This document shows, in pieces, positions 22,326 through 46,809 of a DNA stretch of 64,000 bases. Source of the DNA: Candidatus Omnitrophota bacterium (GTDB lineage Bacteria; Omnitrophota; Gorgyraeia; Tantalellales; Tantalellaceae); the NCBI GenBank assembly GCA_015231405.1, contig JADGBR010000006.1, positions 40,218-104,217 of the forward strand, read 5' to 3'. The translations under genes were made by a program, and so were the position numbers. A model generated the notes under the pieces. The model made no database searches and was not told the origin of the DNA. It worked only from the letters and a program-made list of their open reading frames with translations. How positions within the stretch are numbered: the stretch's first letter is position 1; the number at the start of each line of letters is the position of its first letter.

Positions 22326-22326
22326 T

Positions 22327-25545: not shown

Positions 25546-25744
25546 GTTATCCTTTAGAATCCAGAATTCAGAATCCAGAATCCAGAATTCGTCATACCAG
25601 AACGGAAGCATATCATCAATTGCTTCATGGTATCTCTTCCAAATATCACATTAACGATCCATATTTTAAGCATTAAATACCTTTCACGCTCCGTCTTCCG
25701 TGATTCTGGCTTTGGGATCTTATCTTCATTATCCCTAACCAACA

Positions 25745-27163: not shown

Positions 27164-27188
27164 TTATGCCCTCCATATGGACCAGAGC

Positions 27189-29961: not shown

Positions 29962-30348
29962 TTACCCGTTCTGCTCAGCTCCTGGCTGGTCAATCACGCC
30001 GCCTTCCTGTTTCTTCTTTTGCCTGTACTGGCGCATGTAATCCCTCATATACTCCCGGTGCCTTTCCTTATTCGCTTCGCGGTAAAGCTGCAAATATTCT
30101 TTATGCTTTTTCCTCCATTCCAGCGACCTTTCCCTGCAGGTCTGCTTCCAGGATTTATCCTGGGATTCTTTGTACTTGAAGTAGTTCGGGTTGCTCTTCC
30201 TCCACTCCTTCATGTTCGACAGCTGCCTCTGGTACTGGCATTCGAGGCTTGAACAAACCGTCTGATTAGGCCGATATTTGTTCGGAACAAAAGGCTTACC
30301 GCAATTCTTGCAGCTCTTCTCTTTCCTTCTTATCTCATCCACAATCAC
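29962..30348 (-). CDS. Cys-rich small protein (putative zinc ribbon), hypothetical
   Basis: CKNCGKPF…CSSLEC pattern. It overlaps the ROK gene stop by 4 bp. Confidence 0.45.
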   Translation of the reverse strand: MIVDEIRRKEKSCKNCGKPFVPNKYRPNQTVCSSLECQYQRQLSNMKEWRKSNPNYFKYKESQDKSWKQTCRERSLEWRKKHKEYLQLYREANKERHREYMRDYMRQYRQKKKQEGGVIDQPGAEQNG

Positions 30349-32248: not shown

Positions 32249-35200
32249 TTAATTCGTCCTCAGATCCCTGGACCCGTCTGTCTGCACGGCGTAAGTGAAA
32301 GTCATCGTAACCATATCGTCGTCATTCATTCCGTCCTGATCGGCATTGACCGTGTCTATCCTCATTTTCGCGTAATAACCTTCCTGCGTTACTAAAAGAT
32401 AAACTTTGCCCGCGGTAGCCGGGCCATTGACTTCGTTCGTTATGTCCGGAGCGGTGGAGAGGCTGTCAAAAGTATAAGTCCCGGAAACATCCTGAATTTT
32501 AGCGTTTCCATATGTGAACAAGAGGTTCGGAAATTCGAGAACAAAATCTCCTACCGCGTCAGCCTGCGCCCCCGATGAAAAGAAAAACCCTCTGTCCATG
32601 TTGGAGGCCATCGGAAGGTCTACCGACGTTACCGTTCCTGTCCTTACGCTAAGTACCGAAGACACTCCTCCGGTTTCCTGTGTAGCGCCAGATCCGGGCT
32701 GCTCAGGGTTCCTCGTATCCCTGTCAACCCTGATAGCCTCGACGACGGCCTCGCCGAGTCCGCTGGACGAGGCTATTTCAGGAGAAAGCGTCGCGTATAT
32801 GAGATTGCCCTTAAGATTGTAGATCTTCATTTTACCGTCTTCCAGTAAAAATATCATTCGGGTCGAACCGCTTGTCCTCTGCTGCTGGCCAGTTTTCTTC
32901 GGTGTCTGGGTTTTCTGCCACCGTGTTTCGGCAATAAATAACGCGTTGTTCTTCTCTATACGGTCGATGAATATCGTAAGCCTTATATCGTCGAACATAT
33001 CAAAATCGAACCTGATCCCTTCTTCCAGAAATATCTTATTCCCCAGAAAATCCCTCGATATCAGAGAAGACACATTCGCGATATTTTTAGACTCGTAAGA
33101 ATCGGCTAATTCCTTAACGGCGTCCCTGATCAGCACGGTATGATCTATATCCCGGTAAACGAGCGTCTGTCCGTTCGAAAGGAGATCGAATACTTTTTCA
33201 TCGGACTCGAACTTAAGTTTGATCCGCGGAATGTACTGTTTTCCAGGGACAGGATGGAACGAATACCGGATTTGCCTGTCTACGGGTATTTCTTTAAATA
33301 CCGATCCGTCTTCCGATATAAGGACTGTCTTTATACCGTAAAGGTTATCGAGCCACGCGGTGATCTCTATAGTATTGTCGCGAAGTTCGCTCGAGGTAAG
33401 CACCATTTCGCCGGGAACATTGGGTATCGTGAGCGTGTTCACTCTCACGTCATACACCCTGTACCCGGACTTTTCAGCGTCTTCCTTCTCCCTTTTCTTC
33501 CTTTCTTCTTCCTCTTTCCTCTTTTCCTCATCGCGTTTAGCCGCGTATTCCGCGTCCATCCTGGCCTCATATATCTTCATCGACGCCTCTATAGCTTTAT
33601 TCGTCTCCGCGGAAAAGATCTTGTATATGGCCGGGGTCTTCCCTCCGTCAGGGGAGGCGTAGGCCTTAAGCCATTGGTCTAATATGGGCCGGTCGGCTTC
33701 TGCGTTGAGCGTGGAAGCGATAACGGCCCTTTTACCCATGGCTGTGACGTAATCGGAAGACGCGAACTCGTTACGGACTTTCAAGTTGATCTCGTCTATC
33801 TTAGGGAGAAAAGATATAAAGTCGTTGATCTCGTTCGCCACGCCGAAACTCGCGTTAGCTATCTCGGCGCATTTATTAAAAATATCCTCTCTTACCCTGG
33901 GATTCCCGTTCATGTCGACATCCCACAGGTCCTCGCCGTATTTATTCTCAGGGTTTATGACGCCTTGTTCGGGGTAGCCTTCAGCGATTACCCTCACCAG
34001 ACCGAGATCCGGATCGGAGTTAACTTTTTCCTCGAACTGCCAGCGGGTATTGAGAGCGAGCGCCGCGAGATGCCCCGCGCGCGAGGCGGGTTCACCCAAT
34101 ACCGCGAATTTCTTCCTTTCTTCTTCAAGAAAAGCTTTAACCTTAGCCCCATCGGCTCCGGAATCGAACATCTCGGCCACTTGCTTGCGTAGCTTAGCGA
34201 GATGCCGGTATGCGGAGGCGCTGTCTTCGAACCCGGCGGCTTTGGCCTCAACTATGACCGCCTTACCCTTATTTACGGCGAATATGGCCGCGTTCACCAC
34301 ATCGGCCGCGCCGGTAGAATATCTTTGAACGAATCCCCTGGCTTTTGATACCTTATTATCGAACTCAGAGCGCATAGCGGTGATATTCTTTTTATACACA
34401 TCATTCTCTTCCGGGATCCTCGCGATGATTTTATTTAAAGATATCGATTGAGATGAGGCTGAGGCGGTAAGATACTCCACATTGTAAGAGCCAGGGCTCA
34501 CTCCCAACCCCGCCAAAGCGTTCATAACAGGGGTCGCCTCCCCTTTAAGAGAAGAAACAAAATTGTCATATTCCACCGGATATCTCCGGATTACAGGAAG
34601 CAGATCGTCGTTAACCTTAATGATGACCCCGTAAAAATTCATTTCCTGAGTAAGCTCCTGGGGGCCCATGCCTCTTATGACCTGAGGAGCTAAAAGCTCA
34701 GGCAAGGCGTAGCTCGAGCTTTTTCCCTCAAGAGGATTATGGTTCCCACCCTTGAAGGAAGCCTTAGCTTCCTTGTTAAGTTCCGCGCCTATCTCCTCGA
34801 ACTTCTTTCGCCCGGCGGCTTCTATATTGTAGAGCGCTGTTTGATATGAAGCTATGAGCGCCTGCCGCTCCGCCTCATCTTTGACATGTGCCGGCGCAGG
34901 CGTAATATTAATTTTCCCTTTTTCTTTCCCGGCTGAATTGATCTCACCGTCTTTCTTTGCCGCCATCTCAATTTCAGCGGCTGATAACCTTTTCTTGAGC
35001 TCTTCCAGGCGTTTCCCCAGCCTATCGTCCTCTTCCGCTACACGGGGACGCTCGCTATCGATATCGGCTTTTGTCCTATCCAGATTTTTTCTGAGCTCGT
35101 ATATCTTTTTTTTGGCGTTCTCAATGGCTTCTAGGACATAATAGAACTTCCTATAAATAAGGCCCGTCTCTCCGAGATCGTCCGGGTTCTCCCCTTCTCT

Positions 35201-35737
35201 CATCACCTTGATCTTAAGATCGATGGCGTCCATGCTCAACGTTTTTTGGACTTCCGCGATCTCCGGAAGCAGCTTCTGGGCTCCTTCGCTCAGCCCCTGT
35301 ACGACTTTTTTGTAGGGGGAGAGCATACTGTCCTGCATCTGGTCCGACGCGTATTCGCAGGCGCAGGCGAGGATGATCAGCTTAATGGACTGCTGGGCGA
35401 AACCCAGCACAAGATTGACTTTCTGATACGTGTCAAACCCGAGCTTTATAGTGGATTTAATAAGGTTTTTCTGCAAGAGGTCCCTCATCCTCTTTTCGAG
35501 AGCGTCGAGCTCGTCATAGGCCTTGCCAAGGGACTCTACCATGCCAGGATAATTCTTCAGGAATTCATCCATACGGACAAGGGCGTCGTGGACTATCTTG
35601 TATTTCGCCTCGGTCTCGCGTATCTCGTTCTGGAGGTAATAAGCATCCTCCGCTGCGAACGCGTCAGGGGCTGTTCCCGGCATTGACGACAAAACCATAG
35701 AAAAGGACAAAATCGCTCTGACTGTTTTTCTGATCAT
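32249..35737 (-). CDS. Giant secreted paralog A: signal peptide, KE-rich coiled coil, conserved C-terminal module of about 350 aa including an NTF2-like domain
   Basis: 1162 aa. Signal peptide MIRKTVRAILSFSMVLSSMPGTAPDAFAAED. The C-terminal block (…LISRDFLGNKIFLEEGIRFDFDMFDDIRLTIFIDRIE…MIFLLEDGKMKIYNLKGNLIYATLSPEIASSSGL…) is shared with paralogs B and C. Confidence 0.7.
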   Translation of the reverse strand: MIRKTVRAILSFSMVLSSMPGTAPDAFAAEDAYYLQNEIRETEAKYKIVHDALVRMDEFLKNYPGMVESLGKAYDELDALEKRMRDLLQKNLIKSTIKLGFDTYQKVNLVLGFAQQSIKLIILACACEYASDQMQDSMLSPYKKVVQGLSEGAQKLLPEIAEVQKTLSMDAIDLKIKVMREGENPDDLGETGLIYRKFYYVLEAIENAKKKIYELRKNLDRTKADIDSERPRVAEEDDRLGKRLEELKKRLSAAEIEMAAKKDGEINSAGKEKGKINITPAPAHVKDEAERQALIASYQTALYNIEAAGRKKFEEIGAELNKEAKASFKGGNHNPLEGKSSSYALPELLAPQVIRGMGPQELTQEMNFYGVIIKVNDDLLPVIRRYPVEYDNFVSSLKGEATPVMNALAGLGVSPGSYNVEYLTASASSQSISLNKIIARIPEENDVYKKNITAMRSEFDNKVSKARGFVQRYSTGAADVVNAAIFAVNKGKAVIVEAKAAGFEDSASAYRHLAKLRKQVAEMFDSGADGAKVKAFLEEERKKFAVLGEPASRAGHLAALALNTRWQFEEKVNSDPDLGLVRVIAEGYPEQGVINPENKYGEDLWDVDMNGNPRVREDIFNKCAEIANASFGVANEINDFISFLPKIDEINLKVRNEFASSDYVTAMGKRAVIASTLNAEADRPILDQWLKAYASPDGGKTPAIYKIFSAETNKAIEASMKIYEARMDAEYAAKRDEEKRKEEEERKKREKEDAEKSGYRVYDVRVNTLTIPNVPGEMVLTSSELRDNTIEITAWLDNLYGIKTVLISEDGSVFKEIPVDRQIRYSFHPVPGKQYIPRIKLKFESDEKVFDLLSNGQTLVYRDIDHTVLIRDAVKELADSYESKNIANVSSLISRDFLGNKIFLEEGIRFDFDMFDDIRLTIFIDRIEKNNALFIAETRWQKTQTPKKTGQQQRTSGSTRMIFLLEDGKMKIYNLKGNLIYATLSPEIASSSGLGEAVVEAIRVDRDTRNPEQPGSGATQETGGVSSVLSVRTGTVTSVDLPMASNMDRGFFFSSGAQADAVGDFVLEFPNLLFTYGNAKIQDVSGTYTFDSLSTAPDITNEVNGPATAGKVYLLVTQEGYYAKMRIDTVNADQDGMNDDDMVTMTFTYAVQTDGSRDLRTN

Positions 35738-35799: not shown

Positions 35800-38700
35800 C
35801 TAAAAATTCCTCGACCCGTCGCGCTGGTACTTGTACCTGACTACCGTCGTGAACGGAAAGGCGGCCGCCGTCATGCTCGTTATCGATATGATCGCGTACT
35901 TCCCGTCGGGAAGCTGGAGCGCGTAAGTATGTCCCGTCGCCGCGTCAAGCCATCCTCCGGCATCATATCCTGAAGACGGCGCTTCGGTGACGCTGTCAAT
36001 AGATACCCCGCCGAGATCCACGATCCCTCCTGACGGATTTACCTTAATAAAAACGTCCTCTCTCCTGAAATCCGAGCTAAAAGCGAAAATATCCCTGGTT
36101 ACAGCGCTACACGCGAAAGTGTAGCCGTCGCAATCATGGAAACCGTATTGCGTAAGCGTTACCGACCCTGACTCCGACCTGGCACTCGTTCCGTCCGCGG
36201 TTTCGGTATCCGTATCGCCCTCAGTTGTCCCCGCTCCGGGCTGGACCGGGTCACGGTCGTCCCTGGCTGCCCTGACCTCATCGATGACCGTAACTCCTAA
36301 CCCGCTCGATTCGGCTATCTCCGGGGAAAGCGTCGCGTATATCAGGTTCCCTTTAAGGTTCTTTAGCTTCATCTTCCCGTCCTCGAACGCGAATATCATA
36401 GAAGTGTTCCCGGAAGTTTTCTGCTCCTGGCCGGTCTTTCTCGGACTTTGCGTTTTGTTCCATTTCGTATCTGCTATGAAATATGCCCCGCCCTTCTCTA
36501 TCCTGTTAATAAAAATGGCAAGCCTTATGCTGGAGAACATATCAAAATCAAACCTCACGCCTTCCTCAAGAAAAGTCCTGTTCCCGAGAAAATCATCGGA
36601 AACATATTCGCTGAAAGCCGATACGTTCTGCTGTTCGTATGCGTTGGCTATCGCCATGATAGAGTCCTGGACCAGCTTTACAAAATCAATATCCTTATAC
36701 GTAATGCTTTGGACATACGGGAAAAGCTCCTGGGTCACTTCTCCGGCTTCACCCATATCTATCCTTAAGATAAAGGTGTACTCGGCGTCAGGCGTCGGGG
36801 CAAAAGAATATTTCACATCTGCGCTATTCTGGATCTTCGTCCAGCTCCTGCCGCCATCCACTGAGATCTCGACGCCCCGTGATCCCGCGACTGTAGAAAG
36901 CTTCCCGGCGACCTCTATCTTACCGTTCTTGAGGTCCATTTTAGAAAGAACCACTGTTTGAGGCATGCTAGCCGCGTTGTATTTGTTAAGCGTCGCGCTC
37001 AGGACTTGTATGGCCTGCCGGCCGGCTTCATCCTCCGCTTCCTTCTTCTTTCTCTCCTCCTCTTCCTTCTTTTTCCTCGCCGCTTCTTCTTCCGCGGCTT
37101 GACGTTCCCGTTCCCATCGTTTTTCTTCATCTATTTTGTCCTGGCCGGACTTTTTGAGCTCATCCTCCACCTCTTTCTCCAGGGCCATCCATCCGCCTAA
37201 GGATTTCTCAATTGCGTCTGTCTTCGCGAACATGGAATATAGCCGGACGAAATGTGAAACATTCTCCTTCTGGAATTTCTCGAGCTGCTTGATCTTTTCC
37301 TGGACATTGTAGCTGTTCTTCTTAATATCGTCGAATTTCTGCTTCGCCTCGCCAAGATATTTATCGGCCAGTGCCGCCCTCTCGTCAAAAGTCTTTTTGA
37401 CAGTTTCGTAGGTCTCCTGGTACACCTTTATCCTGTCGGGTATGGTCAACCATTTATCAAGCGGAGGGTAGTAGGACTGGGCGAAATCGAATCTATACCT
37501 GATATTTGTCCCTATGCCTTTACGCAGGTTGTCCAGCTTAGAGACGAGATCGCTGTATTTCGCCCAGGCCTCTTTCATCTGTTCCAGGTACGCATACCCT
37601 CGCATCTTTTCGGGCAGGGTGTACATAAAAGCTGAGTTATCCGGCATAATGTACATATCGCTCTGCCTTCTTATTTCCTGTTCAAGCGTAAGATCAGAAA
37701 GGCGCAGCATGAACATATCCAGGGTGATATCGTAGTATATCCTGGCATACGCCGAGGCCACCTGGTCCGCGTGCTCTATCGTAAAAAGATCGCTTTCTCT
37801 CTTTGCAACGGCTGCTATGGCCTTATCCATTTCCTCGAGTATATCCTTTCTCTCCATCACCTTCGCCTGCGCCTCGGCGTCGTTATCTCCTCCCCACACC
37901 CTCGGGATACCCACGCTTTCGGCAGGAAGTATCTCCCCTCCCAGTTGCGCGTTATAGAACTGGCTTGTGGAAACGATATTTTCAAATCCCCACGACTGTT
38001 TACCGTCATATGGGATGAGCAGTCTTTTCGGCATTGAGCTCTCAAAACTTTTCGCGATGCTGATAGCGGACGCCGCGTATTGTTCGAATGCTTTTTTTTC
38101 TTTCGCGTAGAGTTCGGCCGCGGCTGACCTGTCTCCGGAAAGGTCCACTTTCATCTGTTGCACCTCTACAAGCTCCCGTGACGCGTCGCCGGGCATCTCG
38201 TATACGAGACCTTCCCGAGCGGCCATGTTCTCGGATATGATGGTGTAGAAATAGGCGGATCCCCATCCATCGGGAAAATTCAATTTGGTAAGGGCCTCCT
38301 GGGATGTCTCGCTGCCGGCTTTCCGATAGGCTTCCACGGCTTTATCGAGCTCTTCCCTGATCTTTTCGGCCTTTTCCCTCATATAAGCCCTCATCTTACT
38401 TCCCCGCTCGAGAGCTTCCGCGACAATGACCTGCTCTTCGGCGCATAGCACCTTGTAATCATTATAGAACTGCCCCTCGACTATACTGCCCCAGGCCCGA
38501 TTCATATAAGGCCCGCGCGCCGCATTGTACACATCGGATAACGCGTTACTCTGGGCGACAAGCGCGTCGTGTTCCGCTCTATTCCTGGCATTTTGGATCC
38601 TTGCCCAGATCGCGGCGAACTGAGGGTCATATTGTGCGGCGAGGGCCGCTAGGATCTCATTCGCCTTCCGTTTGCCGTCATCCATTTTCTTACTGGCCGC

Positions 38701-39966
38701 TTGAAGCGCCGCCTTCCTTTTCGACACGTAATCTTCATACATCCGTTCGATCGCCGCCGTATCATACCCCTCGATCCCGGATTCCTTGATCTCGGTGAAA
38801 GCCGTTTCTAAAGCGCTTAAAATTGAGCCATGATCGAACCCTTCATAAGGGAAAGACTGGACATATTTAGCCATCCTGCCGTTGTATTTATCTTCGTCCG
38901 ATTCCTCCGTCCGGACAAATGTCTCGGCATCCTGTTTTTTGGCGCCATTAATAAGGATATCAAATTCATCTATCATTTTTAGAGCCGGATCAGCTTCCTT
39001 CCTGGCCGCGTCGACGGCCGCGGTGACTCCGGCGGAAGCGCCCCTGGTTTCCTGCACAAGAGCGTCCAGTTTCGACCTCAATTCGTTCTCGATCTGTTTT
39101 TTCTCGAGGATATCGGCCTTCATGCGTGAAAGTTCGGCGATAATGGCGTTTTTCATATTGTCGCCTTCGTTATTTTTACCCTTCAAGTACCACCCGCCGT
39201 AAGCAAGCTGCTCGTCCCATTCCCGCTGAACGTAAGAGGCGATGTCAACGGTCTGGATCCATTCGACAAAGCCTCGGGGATTTTGTTGCGGGTCATGCCC
39301 CGCCAGAACGACCTTCATCTTTCCCTCGAGCGCGGAACTGAAGGCGTACTGAACGACATATTTGCCCAAAGCCTCTACCATCGACTGGGCCAGTTTATAC
39401 CATCCCCAGCCCGGCACGAAATATGTTATTATCTTTTCTCCCACATCCTTACCGAGAGATCTTAAGGCTTCTTCCGGACCGTCCTTTTTCCAGCTGGAAA
39501 TAAAATTATACGTCATCTGGACGCCCTCAAGACCGGCCTTAAAAGCGTTTACCTGGGTATCCAATTTTGCGTTAATATCGATATCGGCTGCCGACCACAA
39601 AGCCCCGACGTTCTTCCCTTCTATGATGGCTTTATGCATCATATCCGGGATCTGAGCCTTAAAAAGTTCCTCACGCAATTTTTTCTTTACATATTCCTCG
39701 AGCTTCTCCTTGGCCGCCTCTTTCAGCCGGTCGGAACTCTCTTCCCAGACTCGCTCTTTCCCTTTTTTGAGGATATAGGCGACTTTGGCTTTGTCGGTGG
39801 GGAGGCTGTTAAGTTCCGCGACGTCGTCGACAAAGTTAGTGAATTGTTTGATAAGTTCTTTAGATACCTTTTCCGTAGCCTCGTCCTCTGAGAAAGCCGG
39901 AGGGCACGCCGAAGTTATCGTGAAACAGAGAATGGTTATTGAGGCAAGTATCTTTTTTATGTTCAT
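35800..39966 (-). CDS. Giant secreted paralog B (1388 aa), same architecture
   Basis: Signal peptide MNIKKILASITILCFTITSA. KE-rich coiled coil (…EEEAARKKKEEEERKKKEAEDEA…). Conserved C-terminal module (…VSDDFLGNRTFLEEGVRFDFDMFSSIRLAIFINRIE…KLKNLKGNLIYATLSPEIAESSGL…). Confidence 0.7.
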   Translation of the reverse strand: MNIKKILASITILCFTITSACPPAFSEDEATEKVSKELIKQFTNFVDDVAELNSLPTDKAKVAYILKKGKERVWEESSDRLKEAAKEKLEEYVKKKLREELFKAQIPDMMHKAIIEGKNVGALWSAADIDINAKLDTQVNAFKAGLEGVQMTYNFISSWKKDGPEEALRSLGKDVGEKIITYFVPGWGWYKLAQSMVEALGKYVVQYAFSSALEGKMKVVLAGHDPQQNPRGFVEWIQTVDIASYVQREWDEQLAYGGWYLKGKNNEGDNMKNAIIAELSRMKADILEKKQIENELRSKLDALVQETRGASAGVTAAVDAARKEADPALKMIDEFDILINGAKKQDAETFVRTEESDEDKYNGRMAKYVQSFPYEGFDHGSILSALETAFTEIKESGIEGYDTAAIERMYEDYVSKRKAALQAASKKMDDGKRKANEILAALAAQYDPQFAAIWARIQNARNRAEHDALVAQSNALSDVYNAARGPYMNRAWGSIVEGQFYNDYKVLCAEEQVIVAEALERGSKMRAYMREKAEKIREELDKAVEAYRKAGSETSQEALTKLNFPDGWGSAYFYTIISENMAAREGLVYEMPGDASRELVEVQQMKVDLSGDRSAAAELYAKEKKAFEQYAASAISIAKSFESSMPKRLLIPYDGKQSWGFENIVSTSQFYNAQLGGEILPAESVGIPRVWGGDNDAEAQAKVMERKDILEEMDKAIAAVAKRESDLFTIEHADQVASAYARIYYDITLDMFMLRLSDLTLEQEIRRQSDMYIMPDNSAFMYTLPEKMRGYAYLEQMKEAWAKYSDLVSKLDNLRKGIGTNIRYRFDFAQSYYPPLDKWLTIPDRIKVYQETYETVKKTFDERAALADKYLGEAKQKFDDIKKNSYNVQEKIKQLEKFQKENVSHFVRLYSMFAKTDAIEKSLGGWMALEKEVEDELKKSGQDKIDEEKRWERERQAAEEEAARKKKEEEERKKKEAEDEAGRQAIQVLSATLNKYNAASMPQTVVLSKMDLKNGKIEVAGKLSTVAGSRGVEISVDGGRSWTKIQNSADVKYSFAPTPDAEYTFILRIDMGEAGEVTQELFPYVQSITYKDIDFVKLVQDSIMAIANAYEQQNVSAFSEYVSDDFLGNRTFLEEGVRFDFDMFSSIRLAIFINRIEKGGAYFIADTKWNKTQSPRKTGQEQKTSGNTSMIFAFEDGKMKLKNLKGNLIYATLSPEIAESSGLGVTVIDEVRAARDDRDPVQPGAGTTEGDTDTETADGTSARSESGSVTLTQYGFHDCDGYTFACSAVTRDIFAFSSDFRREDVFIKVNPSGGIVDLGGVSIDSVTEAPSSGYDAGGWLDAATGHTYALQLPDGKYAIISITSMTAAAFPFTTVVRYKYQRDGSRNF

Positions 39967-39994: not shown

Positions 39995-40510
39995 TCAAAA
40001 GGGGGAATTCCCTTTCACATCGTACAGCTTCCATTCCTCTCCCGACTTTTTAAACACGAAAAGACATTGCCCCCGGCTCTTACGCTGGCTTCCGGTGTCG
40101 AACGGCACGTCCTTCTTGTTCCAACTGAAAGAAACGGCGAGTTTGTCTCCTTTCGGAATAACCGTATTTATGAAATACTCTATGTCCAGGGGTCTTGCCG
40201 AATAAAATGAGTTCTCGACGCCGCTCACAAAAGACTGGCCGCCAGAGGGAAAATCATCGTCCACAATATCGGCGAAAGATCCCCTCGTGTACCCACGGTA
40301 AGAGTCGAAGATACGGGATAGAAGACTATCGGCTATCTCCCTTTCTTTTCCGGGAGCTATAACTTTCTGGGCTCTTCCCCTTTCGACCGTCGTTCCGGCC
40401 ATAGCCCACGCGTAAGATGTCAACGCCGTCAAAACCAGTAGCGACGCGAATACCCGGCAAAAACGATCAGAAATTCGAAACGAGCTTGGTGATAAACCTT
40501 GTTTCATCAT
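39995..40510 (-). CDS. Small secreted protein (171 aa) consisting of a stand-alone copy of the paralogs' conserved NTF2-like domain
   Basis: Signal peptide. The segment …DDDFPSGGQSFVSGVENSFYSARPLDIEYFINTVIPKGDKLAVSFSWNKK…GQCLFVFKKSGEEWKLYDVKGN aligns by pattern with RDFLGNKIFLEEGIRFDFDMF…IAETRWQKTQ…TRMIFLLEDGKMKIYNLKGN in the giant paralogs. Confidence 0.55.
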   Translation of the reverse strand: MMKQGLSPSSFRISDRFCRVFASLLVLTALTSYAWAMAGTTVERGRAQKVIAPGKEREIADSLLSRIFDSYRGYTRGSFADIVDDDFPSGGQSFVSGVENSFYSARPLDIEYFINTVIPKGDKLAVSFSWNKKDVPFDTGSQRKSRGQCLFVFKKSGEEWKLYDVKGNSPF

Positions 40511-42233
40511 AAGACTGCTCCTTGTCCTGCTGATTATAGTCGTTATGTTCCCCTCGAAAGACCAGACGCGTGCTCCTTTTCTTCTCCATGAGAAAATTCA
40601 TTTCGAAAAATGTCGTGTAATTAAAATAGTTCTGCATGGGCTGGTTGGAATCGCTGGAGTTCACGTTATAACCAAAATATAGCATATGGGCGCCATAGAT
40701 GTTGTACTGGCCCTGGAACCCTACCCCGGTGTTAAAATCCTCCTTAGGGTACTTTTTGGGGTCGTGATAATCCAGGTTCAAATACCCCGAAAGATACGCT
40801 CGGCGCTTCAATATGTACTGTTCCCGCCCGAGATTCGTGCCGAGGCGGTAAAAGTAGTCGGAGTTAGATTTGACATATTTGTCGATGAAACCCCTAAATT
40901 CGCCGAAAATCCCGTAGCTTGTCTTATCGTCCAGATTATCGTTGACCGCAACGCCAGGCGTGTAAGTGACCGCGCGCAAGGTGTTAAAAACGTCGTCAGA
41001 CCTTCGTTCCTGCACGTTCGTGTAAGCCCTGACGCTGAACGAAGGATCGCTTTCGTACGGACGCATATTGAGCGTCATGTATTTTTCGTCGTATATGGTG
41101 CGTTTTTTCAATGTGCTTCCGGTAAGATGGTTCCAGTAATAATTCTCTGTGACGGTCGCCCTCATCTTTTTAGTGATATCATAATCAAGAGTTCCCTGGT
41201 GCTGCATTTTATCGGGCATAGCTGAACCCGCGTCGGTATAAAATTTAGGCTGAACGTAGTAGAAAAGATAAGTGCCGGTAAAGGGTCCGTATTTCAAACG
41301 GGGCCTGGCCCTGAACGCGTTGCCGTGCTTGTCGTCCGAATACGCCGCTTTTCTTTCGTCAAGGTTGTGATAACTCGTACCCAACTCATAGATCAGTGAG
41401 AAGTACTCTTTCGTGGCTATCTCGCCGTCCACGCTGACCACCGTATTGCTCATGTCCGGGATAGGCGTCCCGAGCCCTGTGGAATCGCTGGTAGCTCTGT
41501 CGTCACGGTTTGTAACGGCCTGGGTCCCTATCCTGAAAGTTTTGAACGCTTCCTCTCCTTCCTCCTTAAAAAGAAAGATATCGGTCTTCCCTCCGTACAC
41601 ATTTCTCCAGAATGCGCTCATATCGTTATCAGGGCTCTGACTGCGCGCGGCGACCCCTTGCAAATGCACGCTGTCGTATTCTTTTATCTCAGCGTTGAAC
41701 CCTTCGAGTGAGTTACCCAGAGTGAACTGGCTGAAGTCCCCGTAGAAATCTCCGAAGAGGAGCATATTGTCGGGGTTGGATATCTGGGTAGTAAGCTGTT
41801 TGACCCGGAGGTCCTTCCTCCTTTCGATACGACGGTCATCGGTCCTCCGGAGGAACAGCTGGCTTTCAAAACTGTAGTCTGAGATCAATTTTTCATAGCT
41901 ATTGATATTGACCTCGGTATTCTGATAAACTCCCCTTCTGAGAAATGTTTTCGTTCCGTTGCCTCCGGTAGCGTTAAAATTTATCTCTTCCATAACGCTC
42001 CCGGTTATCATTCCGGAACGGTCAGGGCCATAGTTGCCGTAATTTTTAAAATCGAGAAGATCATCCACCCTATCCTCAAGGGTGAAGGTCTTATTTACAT
42101 CAGGTGCTCCTCCGGCTGTAGAACCCTGTCCGAGATAATAAACCTCCGCCGCTTCAAGTGTTAACGGCCGGCAGAAAATAACTATTCCCGCCAGAACGAA
42201 CGACACAGCTACATCTCTCGACCTTTTTCCCAT
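40467..42233 (-). CDS. Outer-membrane beta-barrel protein (porin/transporter-like), hypothetical
   Basis: 588 aa. Signal peptide. Alternating aromatic/hydrophilic beta-strand pattern throughout. The C-terminus ends in the aromatic signature …KLVSNF. Confidence 0.6.
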   Translation of the reverse strand: MGKRSRDVAVSFVLAGIVIFCRPLTLEAAEVYYLGQGSTAGGAPDVNKTFTLEDRVDDLLDFKNYGNYGPDRSGMITGSVMEEINFNATGGNGTKTFLRRGVYQNTEVNINSYEKLISDYSFESQLFLRRTDDRRIERRKDLRVKQLTTQISNPDNMLLFGDFYGDFSQFTLGNSLEGFNAEIKEYDSVHLQGVAARSQSPDNDMSAFWRNVYGGKTDIFLFKEEGEEAFKTFRIGTQAVTNRDDRATSDSTGLGTPIPDMSNTVVSVDGEIATKEYFSLIYELGTSYHNLDERKAAYSDDKHGNAFRARPRLKYGPFTGTYLFYYVQPKFYTDAGSAMPDKMQHQGTLDYDITKKMRATVTENYYWNHLTGSTLKKRTIYDEKYMTLNMRPYESDPSFSVRAYTNVQERRSDDVFNTLRAVTYTPGVAVNDNLDDKTSYGIFGEFRGFIDKYVKSNSDYFYRLGTNLGREQYILKRRAYLSGYLNLDYHDPKKYPKEDFNTGVGFQGQYNIYGAHMLYFGYNVNSSDSNQPMQNYFNYTTFFEMNFLMEKKRSTRLVFRGEHNDYNQQDKEQSYDETRFITKLVSNF

Positions 42234-42282: not shown

Positions 42283-45200
42283 TTATTGCGTCCTAACGTT
42301 CCTCGTCCCATCGGTCTGGAGCGCGTACTGGAATTCCAGCGTATCAGGCGGACCGAGAGTCCGGTTGGTCACCGTCATCTTCCCGTATTTTGCATCTGCG
42401 GTCTTAAAAGCGTAAACTTTTCCCACATCCATATTGTCAACAAAAGGGGCGTATCCAGATGACGGGGCTTCATTGAGCGCCCCGAACGTGGAAGTTGTAA
42501 TTTCCTGTATCTCGGACGCGCCTACGGCGATAAATCGCATCCCCATAACATAATTGAAATCACCGGTATCCACGTCAGCCTGAGCCCCGGACGAGAAACT
42601 AAATCCCTTTACATTGCTAGGAGGGGGACCGGGTTCGGATGTGACAGACCCTGTCCGGACGGATATCACGGCGGTCGAAGTCGTCCCTCCGGCCTCAACG
42701 GTCTCGCTGGATCCGGGCTGTACGGGATCACGGGTTTCCTGAGCCTGCTCTATCTGCTCGACGACGGCTTGCGCCAACCCGCTGGATTCGGCTATTTCCG
42801 GGGAAAGAGTAGCGTATATTAGGTTCCCTTTAAGATTGTAGATCTTCATCCTTCCGTCCTCCAGAACAAAGATCATCTCAGTTTTTCCTGTCGTCCTTTG
42901 CTGTTCCCCGGTCTGTCTCGGTATCTGGGTCTTGTTCCACGTTGTCTCGGCAACGTATTGCCCGTTACGTATCTCTATCCTGTTGATGAATATGGTGAGC
43001 CTTATTTCAGTGAACATATCGAAGTCGAACCTCACTCCTTCTTCCAGAAAAGTCCGGTTGCCTATGAAATCCCTCGATATATTCTCTTCGAATAAAGAAA
43101 CGTTCTGGGCTTCATAGGCGTCGGCTATCTTCTTAGCGGCGTCGACGAGAAGCTGGCTATAGTCGATGTTCCTATATATCAACCCGTTGATGTTCTCGAA
43201 CGGCTCTAGAGTGACCTCATCGAAATCCACGGTCTTGATCTTGAAAACGACCTGATACAATTGCTCGACCGCCGGCATGAAGGAAAAGGATAACATCTGG
43301 TTCTTCTGGCATTCGTTCCATATCCGTCCGCCGTCGGTCGAAACGAGTATCTTATCTATCCTGTCCAGCGTGTTCAGCCTGGCTGTAACTTCGATAGCGT
43401 TATTCTTCAGGTCAGTATTCGTGAGGATAACGTCACCGGAAGCGTTTTTTAGGCTCACTGTATTTACGCGCGCGTCATAAAGCTGATAAAAAGAAAACCC
43501 TTCACCCTCCCCCACTGGAACGGTTTGAGAGAAAGACGCCGTTTTCTGTCCGGGCTGGCCTCCCTGTCCAGGCTGTCCCCCTTGCCCCGGCTGCCCGCCC
43601 TGCCCTGGCTGCCCACCCTGCCCTGGTTGTCCTCCCTGTCCTGGTTGTCCTCCCTGTCCTGGTTGTCCACCCTGTCCCGGTTGTCCACCCTGTCCCGGCT
43701 GGCCTCCCTGTCCAGGCTGGCCACCCTGCCCCGGTTGTCCGCCGGGCCCGCTTGTCTTAGTGGTTTTAAGAAACTCCGTGCGCTCTTCCAGGATCTTATC
43801 GAGTTCATTCATTATGGAGACATATCTTTTGCCCAGCGAATGATCGAAAGGAGCCGGGTTTTTCTCATAGGCTTTGTCCACGGCATATGGCTGGCTCGTA
43901 TCACCGCTTGAAATTATGGCACCGGCTATTGCCCCAATGACCGGCATCATCTGCTGCATGAACTCGATATCACTCGCGTCATATTTGACCTTCGGAACTT
44001 CCTCCTCGAACTTCGCGACCGTGCTAGCCTGGATCACGATCTCCGTATCGCCCGAAGGAGCGAAAAAATTGTCTTCCGCGGCGTATTCAACTCCGGGCAA
44101 GGTAAGGATCTTCTCGAGTACCTCGTTAACTCCGGAGGCGCTATTCTTAATGAACTTGTAGCCCGGATATTGCTGCCACATAGTTCTTATCTCGTTGGCG
44201 AAAGTCCCCGTATCGTTCTTAGTCATATAGTGTTTGTAGGGTTTATCCATCAGTATCAAATTGCCGTCTTTCTTGAAAAGGATCTCGTACTCCCCATAGC
44301 TGAACTCCCTAAGAACTCCTTTTTCCTTCTGGTCCCGGAAGAACTCCTCTACCGCCGCTTTTTTAGAGTTGATCCAGTCCGCCCCTTCCTGACGTTTCGC
44401 CATTTCCTCGTCGGCATATTTACGTATCTCGTCGAACCTGGCCTGTGACCTGTTGATGAGATCCTGAAGTTTCTCTATGGCATTGCCCAGGTCCGCCATC
44501 TCTTCCATTTGCCGGTCGAAATTTTCGGAAACACCGAGCACCTTCATTTCGGTGAGTTCACTGTCCGACGGTTTAGGTATATCCTTAAGTTCCGCCGCGG
44601 CTCTCTGCCAATCCGGGTAGGAACCCTGGACATTCGCCATTCGGTACCCACCTTCCCTGCCTATCTCCCCGGCGAAATCGAAGTTTACAGTAGCGGCCTT
44701 CTGGTTCATTTCAGAATATAGCTCGGGAACGCTTTTCGGGTCGTTAAAAGTACCTACTCCCCCATACTCGTAAGATTTCGTTTTTTCTACCGCCGCGTTA
44801 ATGGCGTTCATGTTATCCGAAAAATCTTCATCGGCCTGGGTCCTCGTCCCTGTCCCCAGGATACTATTGACGGGAATTATTTTGGCTGACGCCTGCACAA
44901 GCCCTGTATATTCATACCATTGCCTTTGCCTTACCCTCTTAAGGTCGTTAAAAGTATTGACGAGCCCTGATATCTCGGAATTGGTCTTAACGATCACGGC
45001 TTCGGTCGTATTCCTGAGCGTCTGGCTAACGTCCCCGGCCAGATAATATGCGCTCTGAAGAATGGATAACTCGCCGCCGAGGGCGCTAGTCTCCTTTCTT
45101 ATCGCTTCCATCCGCGTTGAGTTGCCGCTCATTGCCGAGACAAGGCTGCTCCTTAAGGCTTCGTCATAGGAATCGTAATACTGTCTCTGCAATTTCGCGT

Positions 45201-46809
45201 TATCCGCCTCACGGTTCTTATATTCCTCGTTTAGCGCCCCTATCCTCTCATTAATTGGACCTTGCGCGTTCTCATACGCTTTCGCGAGCTTTTTAGGAAG
45301 TTCTTCGTTATAGTAGCCGTTCATCCCTTTCCTGGCGGCGCCCTCCCATTCGGATAGGAGGGTATACGCTTCGGAAAATTTGCCCTTATTCAAAGCTTCC
45401 AGCACCTTATCGTAAAGATCATCACCAGAAGTTCCCCAGTCCTTGAACGGCGCGAGAACTGGAACGAATGCGGCGTTATAATAGCCCATCTCGGGAGCGC
45501 TTATCGTTTTCTCTTCTTCCTCATAAACGGTCGCGGGATCGGTTATGACAGCTTTTTCTTTAGCTCCGAGGGCTTTTTCATAATCCTTTTCCAGCGCCCA
45601 CCACAGCTTCAGCTCGGACTTTAGCGACGCGGAAAGATCGGCCTCTCCGATAAGATTGGAAGCGCTGGACGCGGTCACAAGCGAACTTTTCCAGGTATTA
45701 ATGGCGTTCTGAACTTCGTTCATCCTCTTAAGGTTGGCGATAAGCGTCCCGGCCCCGACGCGCGCGGCCGGACTTTTCGCGAGGAGCTCCTTGTATTTAG
45801 GCAGCTGTTTACGGTATTCTTTTTTGGCGTTGAATTCGCTGAGAAGTTGCGGGATATTGTTCGAAAAGGCTCTTAAACGGTAGGCGAACTTCTTGAATTC
45901 AGCCATCTCATGCCCGGCCCGCTGCTCCGCCCACCGCTCGGTCACCTGGAGGTTAACGTCCTTAAGGAGTTTCATTATCCATGTGCGCGCCTTGTTCCGA
46001 TATTCCACGGAAAGCGCCATAGTCTCGGCGCTTTCGGTCGTGTCCTCTCCCGAGCCTGCCGACATCAGGTCCCTGGCCCAATCCCCCCAACTTTGTTCGG
46101 GCCATTCCTCCCCGAGAACGGTCGTTACATAAGATTTGACCATATCGCGGACCTCGGCGTTGGTCACGATGTATTTGTTAAAGAAATAGTCCGCGGTCTT
46201 TTCGTTGACATCTATCAGCTTAGGAGAGCCGCCCTTGGGATCGGACGTACCCAAAAGACGCCTGTCGTTCTCAACTTTATTGTAAAGCGTCTCTACCTGG
46301 AGCTCGGCGCCCGACTCTACTACCAGCTTATGGGACTCGTAGGCCATCTTAACGGCGGCCCACGCCACTTTTATAACGGGATGATCTATTTCCCCGACGA
46401 CAACGTCCACTGTCAGGAAAAGTGCTTCGTCATATTTCCCTTCTCCGAGCATGGTACCGAGCTTTTGGACGTTCTCTATGATATCCAGGATCTTGTCTAT
46501 TTTGTCCTTGATCTGCTTAGTGTATGCGTCGGTATCGTCGATCTGCCCTTTCCATAGTTTCTCGTATTCAAAGAGAGATTCCCATCCAAGCTCGTTGACT
46601 TTGTCCTGGCCCAGGGCCTTCAATCCTTCCGTCGCTCCGTCCTCCGACATCATGGCTTCCGCCACATCAAGGCCGAGACTTACGCCGGTACCCAATTCAT
46701 CCGGGTCGGTAAATTTCCCGCCCTTGGACCCTTTTTCCTCGGCACTCGCGATATTGAAGTTGAGGACCATTAATGACAACAGGATGAAAACTGATATTTT
46801 ATTAGCCAT
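42283..46809 (-). CDS. Giant secreted paralog C (1508 aa) with an internal GGQPGQ tandem repeat
   Basis: Signal peptide MANKISVFILLSLMVLNFNIASA. Conserved C-terminal module (…ISRDFIGNRTFLEEGVRFDFDMFTEIRLTIFINRIE…KIYNLKGNLIYATLSPEIAESSGL…). Confidence 0.7.
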   Translation of the reverse strand: MANKISVFILLSLMVLNFNIASAEEKGSKGGKFTDPDELGTGVSLGLDVAEAMMSEDGATEGLKALGQDKVNELGWESLFEYEKLWKGQIDDTDAYTKQIKDKIDKILDIIENVQKLGTMLGEGKYDEALFLTVDVVVGEIDHPVIKVAWAAVKMAYESHKLVVESGAELQVETLYNKVENDRRLLGTSDPKGGSPKLIDVNEKTADYFFNKYIVTNAEVRDMVKSYVTTVLGEEWPEQSWGDWARDLMSAGSGEDTTESAETMALSVEYRNKARTWIMKLLKDVNLQVTERWAEQRAGHEMAEFKKFAYRLRAFSNNIPQLLSEFNAKKEYRKQLPKYKELLAKSPAARVGAGTLIANLKRMNEVQNAINTWKSSLVTASSASNLIGEADLSASLKSELKLWWALEKDYEKALGAKEKAVITDPATVYEEEEKTISAPEMGYYNAAFVPVLAPFKDWGTSGDDLYDKVLEALNKGKFSEAYTLLSEWEGAARKGMNGYYNEELPKKLAKAYENAQGPINERIGALNEEYKNREADNAKLQRQYYDSYDEALRSSLVSAMSGNSTRMEAIRKETSALGGELSILQSAYYLAGDVSQTLRNTTEAVIVKTNSEISGLVNTFNDLKRVRQRQWYEYTGLVQASAKIIPVNSILGTGTRTQADEDFSDNMNAINAAVEKTKSYEYGGVGTFNDPKSVPELYSEMNQKAATVNFDFAGEIGREGGYRMANVQGSYPDWQRAAAELKDIPKPSDSELTEMKVLGVSENFDRQMEEMADLGNAIEKLQDLINRSQARFDEIRKYADEEMAKRQEGADWINSKKAAVEEFFRDQKEKGVLREFSYGEYEILFKKDGNLILMDKPYKHYMTKNDTGTFANEIRTMWQQYPGYKFIKNSASGVNEVLEKILTLPGVEYAAEDNFFAPSGDTEIVIQASTVAKFEEEVPKVKYDASDIEFMQQMMPVIGAIAGAIISSGDTSQPYAVDKAYEKNPAPFDHSLGKRYVSIMNELDKILEERTEFLKTTKTSGPGGQPGQGGQPGQGGQPGQGGQPGQGGQPGQGGQPGQGGQPGQGGQPGQGGQPGQGGQPGQGGQPGQKTASFSQTVPVGEGEGFSFYQLYDARVNTVSLKNASGDVILTNTDLKNNAIEVTARLNTLDRIDKILVSTDGGRIWNECQKNQMLSFSFMPAVEQLYQVVFKIKTVDFDEVTLEPFENINGLIYRNIDYSQLLVDAAKKIADAYEAQNVSLFEENISRDFIGNRTFLEEGVRFDFDMFTEIRLTIFINRIEIRNGQYVAETTWNKTQIPRQTGEQQRTTGKTEMIFVLEDGRMKIYNLKGNLIYATLSPEIAESSGLAQAVVEQIEQAQETRDPVQPGSSETVEAGGTTSTAVISVRTGSVTSEPGPPPSNVKGFSFSSGAQADVDTGDFNYVMGMRFIAVGASEIQEITTSTFGALNEAPSSGYAPFVDNMDVGKVYAFKTADAKYGKMTVTNRTLGPPDTLEFQYALQTDGTRNVRTQ
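43549..43756 (-). repeat. In-frame 18-bp tandem repeat encoding (GGQPGQ), about 11 copies, within paralog C
   Basis: DNA shows near-identical cctggctgcccaccctgc-type units. The protein reads SGPGGQPGQGGQPGQ…GGQPGQK. Confidence 0.85.

Follow-up and report, generated by a model that had tools for sequence, protein, structure and literature searches.

The window, by which we mean the whole 64,000-nucleotide stretch of Candidatus Omnitrophota DNA that was analysed, carries a cassette of five genes on its minus strand, which in order of reading are the giant paralog C, an outer-membrane barrel, a small protein, and the giant paralogs B and A. The features are as follows.

42283..46809, minus strand: giant paralog C, 1508 aa, with a signal peptide, a ~1000-aa uncharacterised N-terminal region and a C-terminal module (~42283..43494).
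40467..42233, minus strand: barrel ORF, 588 aa, with an ATG start, ending in ...KLVSNF and a stop codon.
Regions of the barrel protein: Sec signal peptide (~1-28), mature motif AEVYYLG, helix (52-59), 26-strand beta-barrel (74-587) and C-terminal Phe.
39995..40510, minus strand: small secreted stand-alone NTF2-like protein, 171 aa, between the barrel gene and paralog B.
35800..39966, minus strand: giant paralog B, 1388 aa, with a signal peptide, a distinct ~980-aa N-terminal region, an E/K-rich linker and the module (35800..37014, residues 985-1388).
32249..35737, minus strand: giant paralog A, 1162 aa, with a signal peptide, a third type of N-terminal region, an E/K-rich linker and the module (~32249..33472).

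The spacings along this order are 49, -44, 28 and 62 nt, no terminator-like site was found between the genes from C to A, and the spacing of the cassette is operon-like. Exactly 49 nt separate the barrel gene from paralog C, as in the original prediction, and the barrel does lie on the same strand between C and the pair B and A, except that the 171-aa ORF intervenes before B. This ORF (39995..40510), the start of which overlaps the 3' end of the barrel gene by 44 nt, was overlooked in the first reading and turned out to be the most tightly linked partner.

The 588-aa ORF at 40467..42233 is a real gene with 46 full-length homologues at E<=1e-99 (36-61% identity), and nearly all of these ~46 come from Omnitrophota. 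Its N-terminus (MGKRSRDVAVSFVLAGIVIFCRPLTLEAA/AEVYYLG) is Sec-signal-peptide-like, with residues 4-20 helical in an AF2 model, the C-terminal F588 is invariant across 37 aligned homologues, and hydrophobic and polar faces alternate in all 26 modelled strands. With the signal peptide, the amphipathic strands and the C-terminal aromatic residue from which it had been recognised all in place, the 588-aa protein is an outer-membrane beta-barrel. The mature motif AEVYYLG is strongly conserved, with V31, Y33 and G35 nearly invariant, and is disordered in the model of the monomer.

The AF2 model (pLDDT 88.4, pTM 0.76) puts the number of strands at 26, beginning at residue 74, with ~45 residues ahead of the barrel and with neither a POTRA domain, an internal plug nor any N-terminal domain. 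The impression by eye that no POTRA-like N-terminal region was present is thereby borne out, Pfam and NCBIfam also showing no domain there. The predicted extracellular loops are short (6-16 aa). Positions conserved in at least 90% of the sequences are found at 50 of 174 lumen-facing sites vs 15 of 170 lipid-facing sites, the facing of each strand position having been set by hydrophobicity parity and not from coordinates. A conserved lumen occurs in substrate-specific channels too.

The paralogy of A, B and C described in the original prediction holds for their last ~400 aa, which are 40-43% identical, and not for their N-terminal ~750-1100 aa, which have no detectable mutual similarity. The common C-terminal part is a module made up of an Ig-like domain, an NTF2-like domain, a linker and a beta-sandwich; in the AF2 model of the module of B (pLDDT 87.7) these span residues 1-106, 111-222, 266-278 (disordered) and 280-400. 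The NTF2-like domain (111-222) superposes on 3rob and 3hx8 with TMt 0.73-0.76 and an rmsd of ~2 A, and its fold neighbours include the NTF2-like domains of Bd1075 and Pgp2. Ahead of the module, the linker of paralog C is a collagen-like (GGQPGQ)n tandem repeat (DNA 43546..43740), and the N-terminal region of C has a helix-favouring composition. The A-type N-terminus has orthologues in other MAGs, for example with 53% identity at L006. Searches of Pfam and NCBIfam returned no significant family for A, B, C or the small protein, the N-terminal 1000 aa of C as a single sequence had zero matches among PDB sequences, and neither paralog C nor the other partners have a transmembrane helix beyond the signal peptide. 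A comparison of the third domain of the module, the C-terminal beta-sandwich, with the DUF4382-type product of the third gene after remote relatives of the barrel gave no match; what similarity the DUF4382-type proteins show is weak and confined to the Asp-box-like stretch of the Ig domain. A 1455-aa ORF elsewhere in the window (59114..63481), considered as a fourth paralog, is instead a MutS-domain protein, and the adjacent TolC/HlyD/AcrB genes belong to an RND efflux cluster of their own.

The small protein has a weak match to DUF4440, an NTF2-like family of Pfam, and is homologous to the NTF2 domain of the giants' module by HMM (E 1.6e-16), in agreement with tblastn. Fold matches and HMM matches together place the small protein and the middle domain of the module in the NTF2-like superfamily. 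Alignment of its orthologues reveals a conserved C-terminal motif, G-[DN]-[SN]-P-F, and a signal peptide is present in 31/31 distinct orthologues, with a lipobox in ~12-14 of them (~40%). We regard the small protein as a candidate for plugging the lumen of the barrel or docking with it.

Comparison across genomes showed how closely barrel and NTF2-like domain are tied. The gene directly after the barrel gene is a stand-alone NTF2 gene in 32/35 loci and a module-bearing gene in the other 3/35, so that an NTF2-like domain follows the barrel directly in 35/35 loci. Giants with the module lie downstream of the barrel gene on the same strand, one to three in number, in 24/27 loci; at L008 the giant is found ~5.8 kb upstream of the barrel gene, and at two loci (L013 and L026) barrel and small protein occur with no giant within 10 kb. 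At L025 and L040 the gene directly after the barrel gene encodes the module only. The MAG from which the window comes encodes a second barrel paralog (P0023, HQL30_08495), whose locus tag is consecutive with that of a module-only protein of 448 aa (HQL30_08490), the context of this paralog being read from the adjacency of the two locus tags. From the module-only versions (HQL30_08490, L025 and L040) it follows that the minimal system is a barrel and one NTF2-bearing protein.

Linkage to module-bearing genes spans 37 genome loci and also distant relatives, with varying gene order. A profile search gave 364 hits in all. Among distant barrel relatives for which flanking DNA is available, an NTF2-like partner gene is adjacent in 7/7 (5 clear and 2 weak). 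One such relative, P0085, lies directly downstream of a 1359-aa giant carrying the module, and in six remoter ones the next gene encodes a secreted protein with an NTF2-like domain (4 clear, 2 weak). In the clear cases an Ig-like domain stands ahead of the NTF2-like domain, one remote partner matches Cds6_C above the Pfam cutoff (E 2.8e-7), and some of the remote versions are minimal, consisting of a barrel and a 250-aa Ig-NTF2 protein. All partners of the barrel have a signal peptide.

The adjacency in 35/35 loci, the giants in 24/27 and the partner genes of 7/7 distant relatives indicate a dedicated barrel and not a generic porin. The earlier proposal that the barrel is dedicated to the neighbouring family is in keeping with this. 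The finding named in advance as speaking against it, a clear generic porin family that also occurs where the paralogs are missing, was looked for and did not turn up, nor did any other assignment in Pfam, NCBIfam or PDB. As to the identity of the partner, the module-bearing giants are indeed linked, but what is invariant is the NTF2-like domain and not the giants as such: the invariant partner is an NTF2-like domain, which either stands alone, as a secreted protein or lipoprotein of ~150 aa, or lies inside the C-terminal module of the giants. For the barrel we infer the role of 'translocator or anchor' that had been suggested.

We consider it highly improbable that the barrel is simply a nutrient porin or specific channel of the ordinary kind which happens to share an operon with unrelated large genes. 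Such a reading could draw on weak matches to BBP2_2 (PF10082, 'putative beta-barrel porin 2') in 3/37 members of the family (best E 1e-5), on a Porin_4 match of one remote relative, and on the presence of OprD/Occ, maltoporin and AlgE among the Foldseek matches. These fold matches cover the barrel only in part (TMq 0.20-0.28) and are to barrels of 16-18 strands vs 26, the window protein matches no porin family, and the persistence of the NTF2-like adjacency through changes of gene order argues strongly against it. General and specific porins (Porin_4, OprD/Occ, FadL and AlgE) were likewise set aside as families for the window protein, with no HMM match to any of them. One database member of the barrel family has a precomputed PF10082 assignment, and a few family members or remote relatives weakly reach BBP2_2 or DUF6029 (PF19494), although the window protein itself matches neither model. 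The barrel family may be distantly related to BBP2_2 and may belong with these two in one broad uncharacterised barrel group. We know of no described function and no described NTF2-like partner for either.

The barrel protein itself has no Pfam or NCBIfam domain at E<=0.1 and zero matches among PDB sequences, whether searched as a single sequence or as a 37-sequence profile. Foldseek, which had been proposed as a way of placing it, returned generic large barrels, of which the best overall fold is the 26-strand MtrB (TMq 0.51), followed by ushers. In architecture the window barrel comes closest to LptD-LptE and MtrB-MtrA, in each of which a 26-strand barrel has a separate partner in its lumen. 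Like the window barrel, LptD is a 26-strand outer-membrane barrel with no plug in its own chain, and its lumen is closed by a small (~150-190 aa) Sec-exported lipoprotein, LptE, which may be compared with the small partners here, some 40% of which have a lipobox. Unlike LptD, the window barrel lacks the OstA/LptD N-terminal beta-jellyroll, and its partner is NTF2-like and not LptE-like in fold, is encoded by an adjacent gene and recurs as a domain fused to proteins of 1100-1500 aa. Membership of the LptD family was rejected, as there is no Pfam or NCBIfam match and no N-terminal domain, only the strand count agreeing; LptD is also absent among the best 50 Foldseek matches.

In the MtrB-MtrA-MtrC complex (PDB 6r2q), also encoded by operon-clustered genes, the 26-strand MtrB barrel forms a sheath around a partner that is inserted from the periplasmic side, and keeps a larger protein on the surface of the cell. 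The likeness to the window barrel is one of fold, with ~10% sequence identity and no MtrB_PioB match in Pfam. No CXXCH haem motif occurs in the small protein, A, B or C, and because no partner has one, the window cassette is not an electron conduit; membership of MtrB/PioB was rejected for want of both the Pfam match and such partners. Ushers (FimD/PapC), which are large 24-strand translocation barrels, give the lowest Foldseek E-values (3e-9 to 1e-6) but TM-scores of only 0.31-0.39. They have their own internal plug and N- and C-terminal periplasmic domains, all absent from the window barrel, and no chaperone or pilin genes accompany the latter, so it was not placed among them.

We suggest, with about an even chance of being right, a conserved and unannotated barrel-partner system of which the 588-aa protein forms the outer-membrane subunit and in which an NTF2-like domain plugs the barrel or docks in it. 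The lack of a plug in the barrel's own chain, its short loops, the conserved lumen and the invariably neighbouring partner gene lend indirect support to a partner inside the lumen. A 26-strand barrel presumably could not remain open in the outer membrane, and the ~115-aa NTF2-like domain would sit in its lumen or cover it, much as LptE does for LptD and MtrA for MtrB. Unengaged barrels might be filled by the stand-alone small protein, which might otherwise pair with the NTF2 domain of the giants. The giants would dock through their Ig-NTF2 module and be held by the barrel at the outer membrane, probably with part of the chain threaded through it, which would expose their variable N-terminal regions of ~1000 aa at the cell surface. 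Several different cargo proteins could in this way share one barrel.

The secretion systems offered for comparison in the original prediction did not hold up as assignments. TpsB/Omp85 and T11SS/Slam share with the window cassette a dedicated outer-membrane barrel encoded beside one or more large exported substrates, and Slam substrates are recognised via a C-terminal domain. However, TpsB combines a 16-strand barrel with two POTRA domains, and its substrate has a TPS domain at the N-terminus, while Slam has a 14-strand DUF560 barrel behind N-terminal TPR repeats, none of which is seen here: the window protein, with its 26 strands and no N-terminal domain, matches neither DUF560 nor TPR and has no TpsB/Omp85 match in Pfam or NCBIfam at E<=0.1. 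T9SS (SprA/Sov) resembles the cassette in its Sec-exported cargo, with a conserved C-terminal region containing a beta-sandwich and variable N-terminal parts, and in having a very large outer-membrane barrel for which the plug must come from a separate protein. SprA, in contrast, has 36 strands and >2000 aa, against 26 strands and only 588 aa here, no Por/Gld genes occur in the window cassette, and the giants and their ~400-aa module with its NTF2-like core match no T9SS CTD family in Pfam.

A different explanation is that the barrel is a true secretion pore, a one-step outer-membrane translocon releasing the Sec-exported giants into the medium, with the module as recognition signal, comparable to the T9SS CTD or to the C-terminal barrel domain of Slam substrates, and with the small protein as a gate in the resting state that cargo displaces. 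We consider this unlikely. It would account for the several cargo genes per barrel gene (three here, one to three elsewhere), for a cargo that is conserved in its C-terminal part and variable in its N-terminal part, for the flexible Gly/Pro-rich or E/K-rich linker ahead of the module, and for the paralogy of the small protein with a cargo domain, as expected of a competitive gate. Against this, the conserved cassette encodes neither an energy source nor a periplasmic chaperone, and a folded ~1000-aa region would have to pass a lumen of ~35 A (an estimate from circular-barrel geometry for 26 strands). The minimal versions with a barrel and a 250-aa Ig-NTF2 protein have no obvious cargo and are better explained by a structural complex.

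The NTF2-like domains of Pgp2 and Bd1075 accompany periplasmic peptidoglycan enzymes, and a role facing the periplasm is thus equally compatible with the domain content. In that case the system would be an envelope scaffold, with the barrel as an outer-membrane anchor that binds the Ig-NTF2 module via its periplasmic N-terminal motif and turns, and the giants would be periplasmic tethers or scaffolds between the outer membrane and peptidoglycan or the inner membrane, with no export. Besides the presence of Bd1075 and Pgp2 among the closest folds, the conserved AEVYYLG motif fits this explanation, being disordered in the monomer as expected of a periplasmic partner-binding strand, as do the giants, which have only Sec signal peptides and whose helix-favouring N-terminal regions would suit elongated periplasmic proteins. 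Such a scaffold would leave the 26-strand barrel, its highly conserved lumen and the closure of that lumen unexplained, and no peptidoglycan-binding or catalytic domain was found in any partner; we hold it to be improbable.

The phylum Omnitrophota is widespread and uncultured and consists of ultra-small bacteria that probably depend on hosts, and to our knowledge almost nothing has been learned of their cell-surface biology. It is speculation that the giants are surface proteins mediating cell-cell contact in these ultra-small, possibly host-dependent organisms. More broadly, and with the odds somewhat against it, we put forward a new outer-membrane display or secretion system, in which a plug-less 26-strand barrel lodges an Ig-NTF2 adaptor fused to varied passengers, which would be represented by several hundred 50%-identity clusters in uncultured bacteria and which in Omnitrophota would present large surface proteins for contact with host or prey. 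Published work on Omnitrophota covers 'giant' ORFs of far greater length as well as Tad or type II-like systems (PMC10066038; bioRxiv 10.1101/2023.11.21.568195), and the barrel-NTF2 cassette is not discussed in either report. A search of the literature on Omnitrophota outer-membrane systems, NTF2-like plugs, other 26-strand barrels and 'Cds6' did not bring up any account of the barrel-partner system.

The five proteins of the cassette have no Pfam, NCBIfam or PDB assignment, yet their gene neighbourhood ranks among the most rigidly conserved that were seen in these genomes, and the pairing of barrel and Ig-NTF2 protein reaches remote relatives beyond the core family. Should the NTF2-like domain indeed lie within the barrel, nature would have a third independent way, after LptDE and MtrAB, of holding a protein inside a 26-strand barrel, and perhaps a new route for large proteins onto the diderm cell surface. 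In practical terms, the proposal offers a testable annotation for several hundred clusters of 'hypothetical' proteins, and defines a target on which complex prediction and heterologous expression can be tried. The passengers of such a display system would be the ~1000-aa helix-favouring N-terminal regions in Omnitrophota, and CARDB or Ig repeats elsewhere.

The barrel ORF is a real, conserved Omnitrophota gene. It has an ATG start closely preceded by a purine-rich, Shine-Dalgarno-like AGGAAGG, and encodes 588 residues ending in KLVSNF. The original prediction was right about its coordinates, length, C-terminal residues and 49-nt spacing from giant C, but it overlooked a 171-aa ORF between the barrel gene and giant B. 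The cassette, in gene order, is as follows.

42283..46809, minus strand: giant C, 1508 aa, first in order, with a 49-nt gap to the barrel gene
40467..42233, minus strand: barrel, 588 aa
39995..40510, minus strand: small protein, 171 aa, with a 44-nt overlap with the 3' end of the barrel gene
35800..39966, minus strand: giant B, 1388 aa, 28 nt after the 171-aa ORF
32249..35737, minus strand: giant A, 1162 aa, 62 nt after giant B, last in order

No terminator-like sites were found in the intergenic stretches between these genes. Searching 5.8 billion proteins gave 46 barrel homologues that align over the full length (36–61% identity, E 1e-99 to 1e-239), with named sources that are almost all Omnitrophica/Omnitrophota, and a 100% match to 'hypothetical protein HQL30_04480' from a MAG of Candidatus Omnitrophica. 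In an alignment of 37 sequences the mean column identity is 51%, and 30 columns are invariant, the C-terminal F588 among them. Pfam and NCBIfam scans of the window protein gave no match, nor did PDB sequence searches with the barrel as a single sequence or a profile.

Modeling with AlphaFold2 from the 37-sequence alignment (mean pLDDT 88.4, pTM 0.76) showed a 26-strand outer-membrane barrel that lacks a plug; its lumen is conserved. A signal-peptide helix (residues 4-20), a disordered segment (21-43) and a short helix (52-59) precede the 26 strands (74-587), one of which is split by DSSP into 421-424 and 427-435. Because the extracellular loops (6–16 residues) and periplasmic turns (mostly 2–5 residues) are short in the DSSP segmentation, the modeled barrel has no POTRA domain, jellyroll, plug or long in-folding loop, and the start of the strands at residue 74 bears out the original reading of a protein with no POTRA-like N-terminal region. 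All strands alternate hydrophobic and polar faces, and at least 90% conservation was seen at 50 of 174 lumen-assigned strand positions versus 15 of 170 lipid-facing ones, an assignment based on parity and therefore approximate. A nearly invariant AEVYYLG motif lies at the predicted mature N-terminus (residues 29-35; window ~42129..42149, minus strand); it is disordered in the model (pLDDT below 50) and could be a strand that pairs, at the periplasmic face, with a domain of a partner.

Foldseek comparison with the PDB gave generic large-barrel matches only, at 7–10% identity. The best E-values belonged to the 24-strand usher barrels FimD and PapC and the top TM-score, 0.51, to the 26-strand MtrB of the Mtr complex (6r2q_B), while porin-type matches (Occ/OprD, maltoporin, AlgE) covered the barrel partially (TMq 0.20–0.28). 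HMM and architecture placed the barrel outside the Omp85/TpsB, Slam/T11SS, LptD, MtrB/PioB, usher and common porin families, and likewise gave no T9SS assignment. The barrel may be distantly related to BBP2_2 and DUF6029, two uncharacterised families in Pfam.

The barrel is genetically locked to exported proteins with an NTF2-like domain. Judged by sequence, the 171-aa protein is a stand-alone copy of the NTF2-like domain of the giants' C-terminal module: it matches an HMM of the module's middle domain (E 1.6e-16), the two find each other reciprocally by tblastn, and there is a weak DUF4440 match. A signal peptide is present in all 31 distinct orthologues of the small protein, a lipobox cysteine in about 12–14, and a C-terminal G-[DN]-[SN]-P-F in nearly all. 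To follow the linkage, one genome per GTDB species was scanned, yielding 37 core-family loci, with further ones added by two contig look-ups, and partners were counted by tblastn. In 35 loci the DNA extends 700 nt or more beyond the barrel gene. The stand-alone NTF2 gene comes directly next in 32 of these, and L025, L029 and L040 have a module-bearing gene in its place, such that the next gene encodes an NTF2-like domain in 35/35. One to three module-bearing large genes follow downstream on the same strand in 24 of the 27 loci with at least 6 kb available; in L008 such a gene lies ~5.8 kb upstream instead, and in L013 and L026 none was found within 10 kb of the barrel. L010 and L017 are arranged as the window, with a giant also directly upstream of the barrel gene. 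The same MAG carries, outside the window, a second barrel paralog (P0023, HQL30_08495; 41% identity), whose locus tag is consecutive with that of a 448-aa module-only protein (P0064, HQL30_08490); judging from these two proteins, neither a giant nor a stand-alone small gene was identified next to it. This minimal arrangement of barrel plus module-only gene recurs in L025 and L040. Linkage supports well the idea that the barrel is dedicated, yet its invariant partner is the NTF2-like protein and not the giants as such. Several cassette contigs (L006, L009, L015, L016, L020, L024, L025, L029, L030, L032, L034 and L040) are labeled non-Omnitrophota (Planctomycetia, Planctomycetales, Clostridiales, Proteobacteria, Desulfocurvus, Alphaproteobacteria, Endomicrobia); these may be mis-binned or mislabeled Omnitrophota contigs rather than true spread.

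When 1.84 billion cluster representatives were searched with a barrel profile, 364 matched at E<=1e-3, of which 237 also passed E<=1e-10. Most of the distant ones have 510–720 aa and are similar in the barrel part only, with no Pfam match or weak ones (Porin_4, DUF6029, or AMIN or TPR N-terminal extensions). A partner gene adjoins the barrel gene in all seven distant relatives with retrievable flanks.

P0085 (L041): 1359-aa giant directly upstream, same module, 33–37% identity; no small gene
P0100 (L044): downstream 157-aa NTF2-like lipoprotein, E 2.7e-19
P0107 (L045): downstream 499-aa Ig + NTF2 protein, Ig HMM 3.5e-14, Pfam Cds6_C 'NTF2-like' 2.8e-7
P0116 (L049): downstream 258-aa Ig + NTF2 protein, 7e-16 and 1e-8
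P0164 (L050): downstream 250-aa Ig + NTF2 protein, 6e-15 and 6e-5
P0129 (L046): downstream 463-aa protein, N-terminal NTF2-like region (weak, 5e-5) + CARDB
P0147 (L047): downstream 755-aa multi-Ig protein, weak C-terminal NTF2-like match

The conserved unit is therefore barrel plus NTF2-like partner. Different extensions are fused to this partner across the relatives, and in most longer partners an Ig-like domain precedes the NTF2-like one. Synteny with such partners effectively excludes reading the barrel as a generic porin. In L049 (2690..3316) and L050 (8924..9577) the barrel and Ig-NTF2 genes are followed by another conserved gene, the third in the row; its product is a secreted protein of ~210 aa (DUF4382 in L049). 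The protein carries an Asp-box-like 'S-x-D-x-G-x-T-W' motif resembling one in the module's Ig domain, but shows no match to the last domain of the module.

Each of giants A, B and C begins with a Sec-type signal peptide; no further transmembrane helices or haem motifs were found in them. Their paralogy is confined to the last ~400 aa (40–43% identity), and the N-terminal 750–1100 aa are of three different types. Because orthologues specific to each type occur in other MAGs (at best 53% identity for A, 39% for B and 44% for C), the three are old, distinct genes rather than recent duplicates. The N-terminal regions have a helix-favouring composition (46–52% A/E/L/K/Q/R/M) and no Pfam match, and the first 1000 aa of giant C found nothing in a PDB sequence search. 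A low-complexity linker precedes the module, E/K-rich in B and A and collagen-like, (GGQPGQ)n, in C (residues ~1020-1090), where it is encoded by an 18-nt tandem repeat (43546..43740, minus strand; 10.8 copies, 85% matches). The E/K-rich stretches of B and A occupy the corresponding place, and there are weak repeats at 37031..37089 and 33480..33524. This variable-length linker may set the distance between module and N-terminal region. In the AF2 model of the module (23 sequences, pLDDT 87.7), residues 1-106 form an Ig-like beta-sandwich and 111-222 an alpha+beta cone; helices follow at 231-252, then a disordered linker rich in Gly, Pro and Thr (266-278) and a second beta-sandwich (280-400). 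The cone superposes on NTF2-like proteins such as 3rob and 3hx8 (TMt 0.73–0.76, rmsd ~2 Å). The NTF2 domains of the peptidoglycan enzymes Bd1075 and Pgp2 are also among its fold matches and suggest a periplasm-facing scaffold, one of two main rival readings, which we consider less likely.

Standard geometry for a circular barrel of 26 strands and shear number near 28 gave, by our calculation, a diameter of about 47 Å at the C-alpha atoms and a lumen some 35 Å wide. We infer that a pore of this width is excluded from staying open. To our knowledge, every solved barrel of comparable size has its lumen filled by something: LptE fills LptD, MtrA fills MtrB, plug domains fill ushers and TonB-dependent transporters, and SprA is occupied by a plug protein or PorV. 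The model suggests that nothing in cis could fill the lumen here, and the always-adjacent NTF2-like domain (~115 aa) is about the right size. Because an open pore would be untenable, a cis filler is missing from the model and this domain is always adjacent and suitably sized, we propose that it occupies the lumen or docks onto it. By default the lumen would then hold the small protein, unless that protein serves as a pairing partner, and the giants would be attached via their Ig-NTF2 module, possibly threaded through the barrel. Their variable N-terminal regions would do the functional work and are probably exposed at the surface. In cargo logic the giants resemble T9SS or Slam substrates, with a Sec signal, a variable N-terminus and a C-terminal module that is conserved. 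The other main rival reading, a true release-type secretion pore gated by the small protein, also seems less likely to us. In its probable working, the system would be closest to LptD-LptE and MtrB-MtrA, in each of which a separate partner is inserted into a 26-strand barrel. It appears to be a variant, so far unannotated, of the barrel-plus-partner theme, with a fair, if less than even, chance of being a display or secretion system in its own right. The translocator or anchor role first suggested for the barrel is plausible as a candidate.

We found no description of the cassette in the searchable literature, including two papers devoted to the biology of Omnitrophota and to giant genes; these treat far larger ORFs and Tad or type II-like systems (PMC10066038; bioRxiv 10.1101/2023.11.21.568195).

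The window also holds a separate RND efflux cluster (18921..29885, minus strand) and other neighbours.

27189..29885, minus strand: unusually long TolC-like OEP protein (898 aa), TPR-like repeats at its N-terminus
25745..27163, minus strand: HlyD-type membrane-fusion protein of the RND cluster
22327..25611 and 18921..22325, minus strand: two tandem AcrB-family pumps of the RND cluster
30345..31472: ROK-family protein with a weak winged-helix N-terminal match, between the RND cluster and giant A
47029..48693, plus strand: PMT_2-type (ArnT/dolichyl-phosphate-mannose-like) glycosyltransferase, upstream of the cassette and divergent
48694..50211, minus strand: CBS-GAF-GGDEF diguanylate cyclase, adjoining the glycosyltransferase
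59114..63481, minus strand: 1455-aa ORF, sole match MutS domain V (residues 1017-1182)

The MutS-domain ORF is of giant-like size and unrelated to A, B and C; its other ~1200 aa have no assignment. Through the glycosyltransferase and the cyclase, the cassette is possibly tied to envelope glycosylation or c-di-GMP control.
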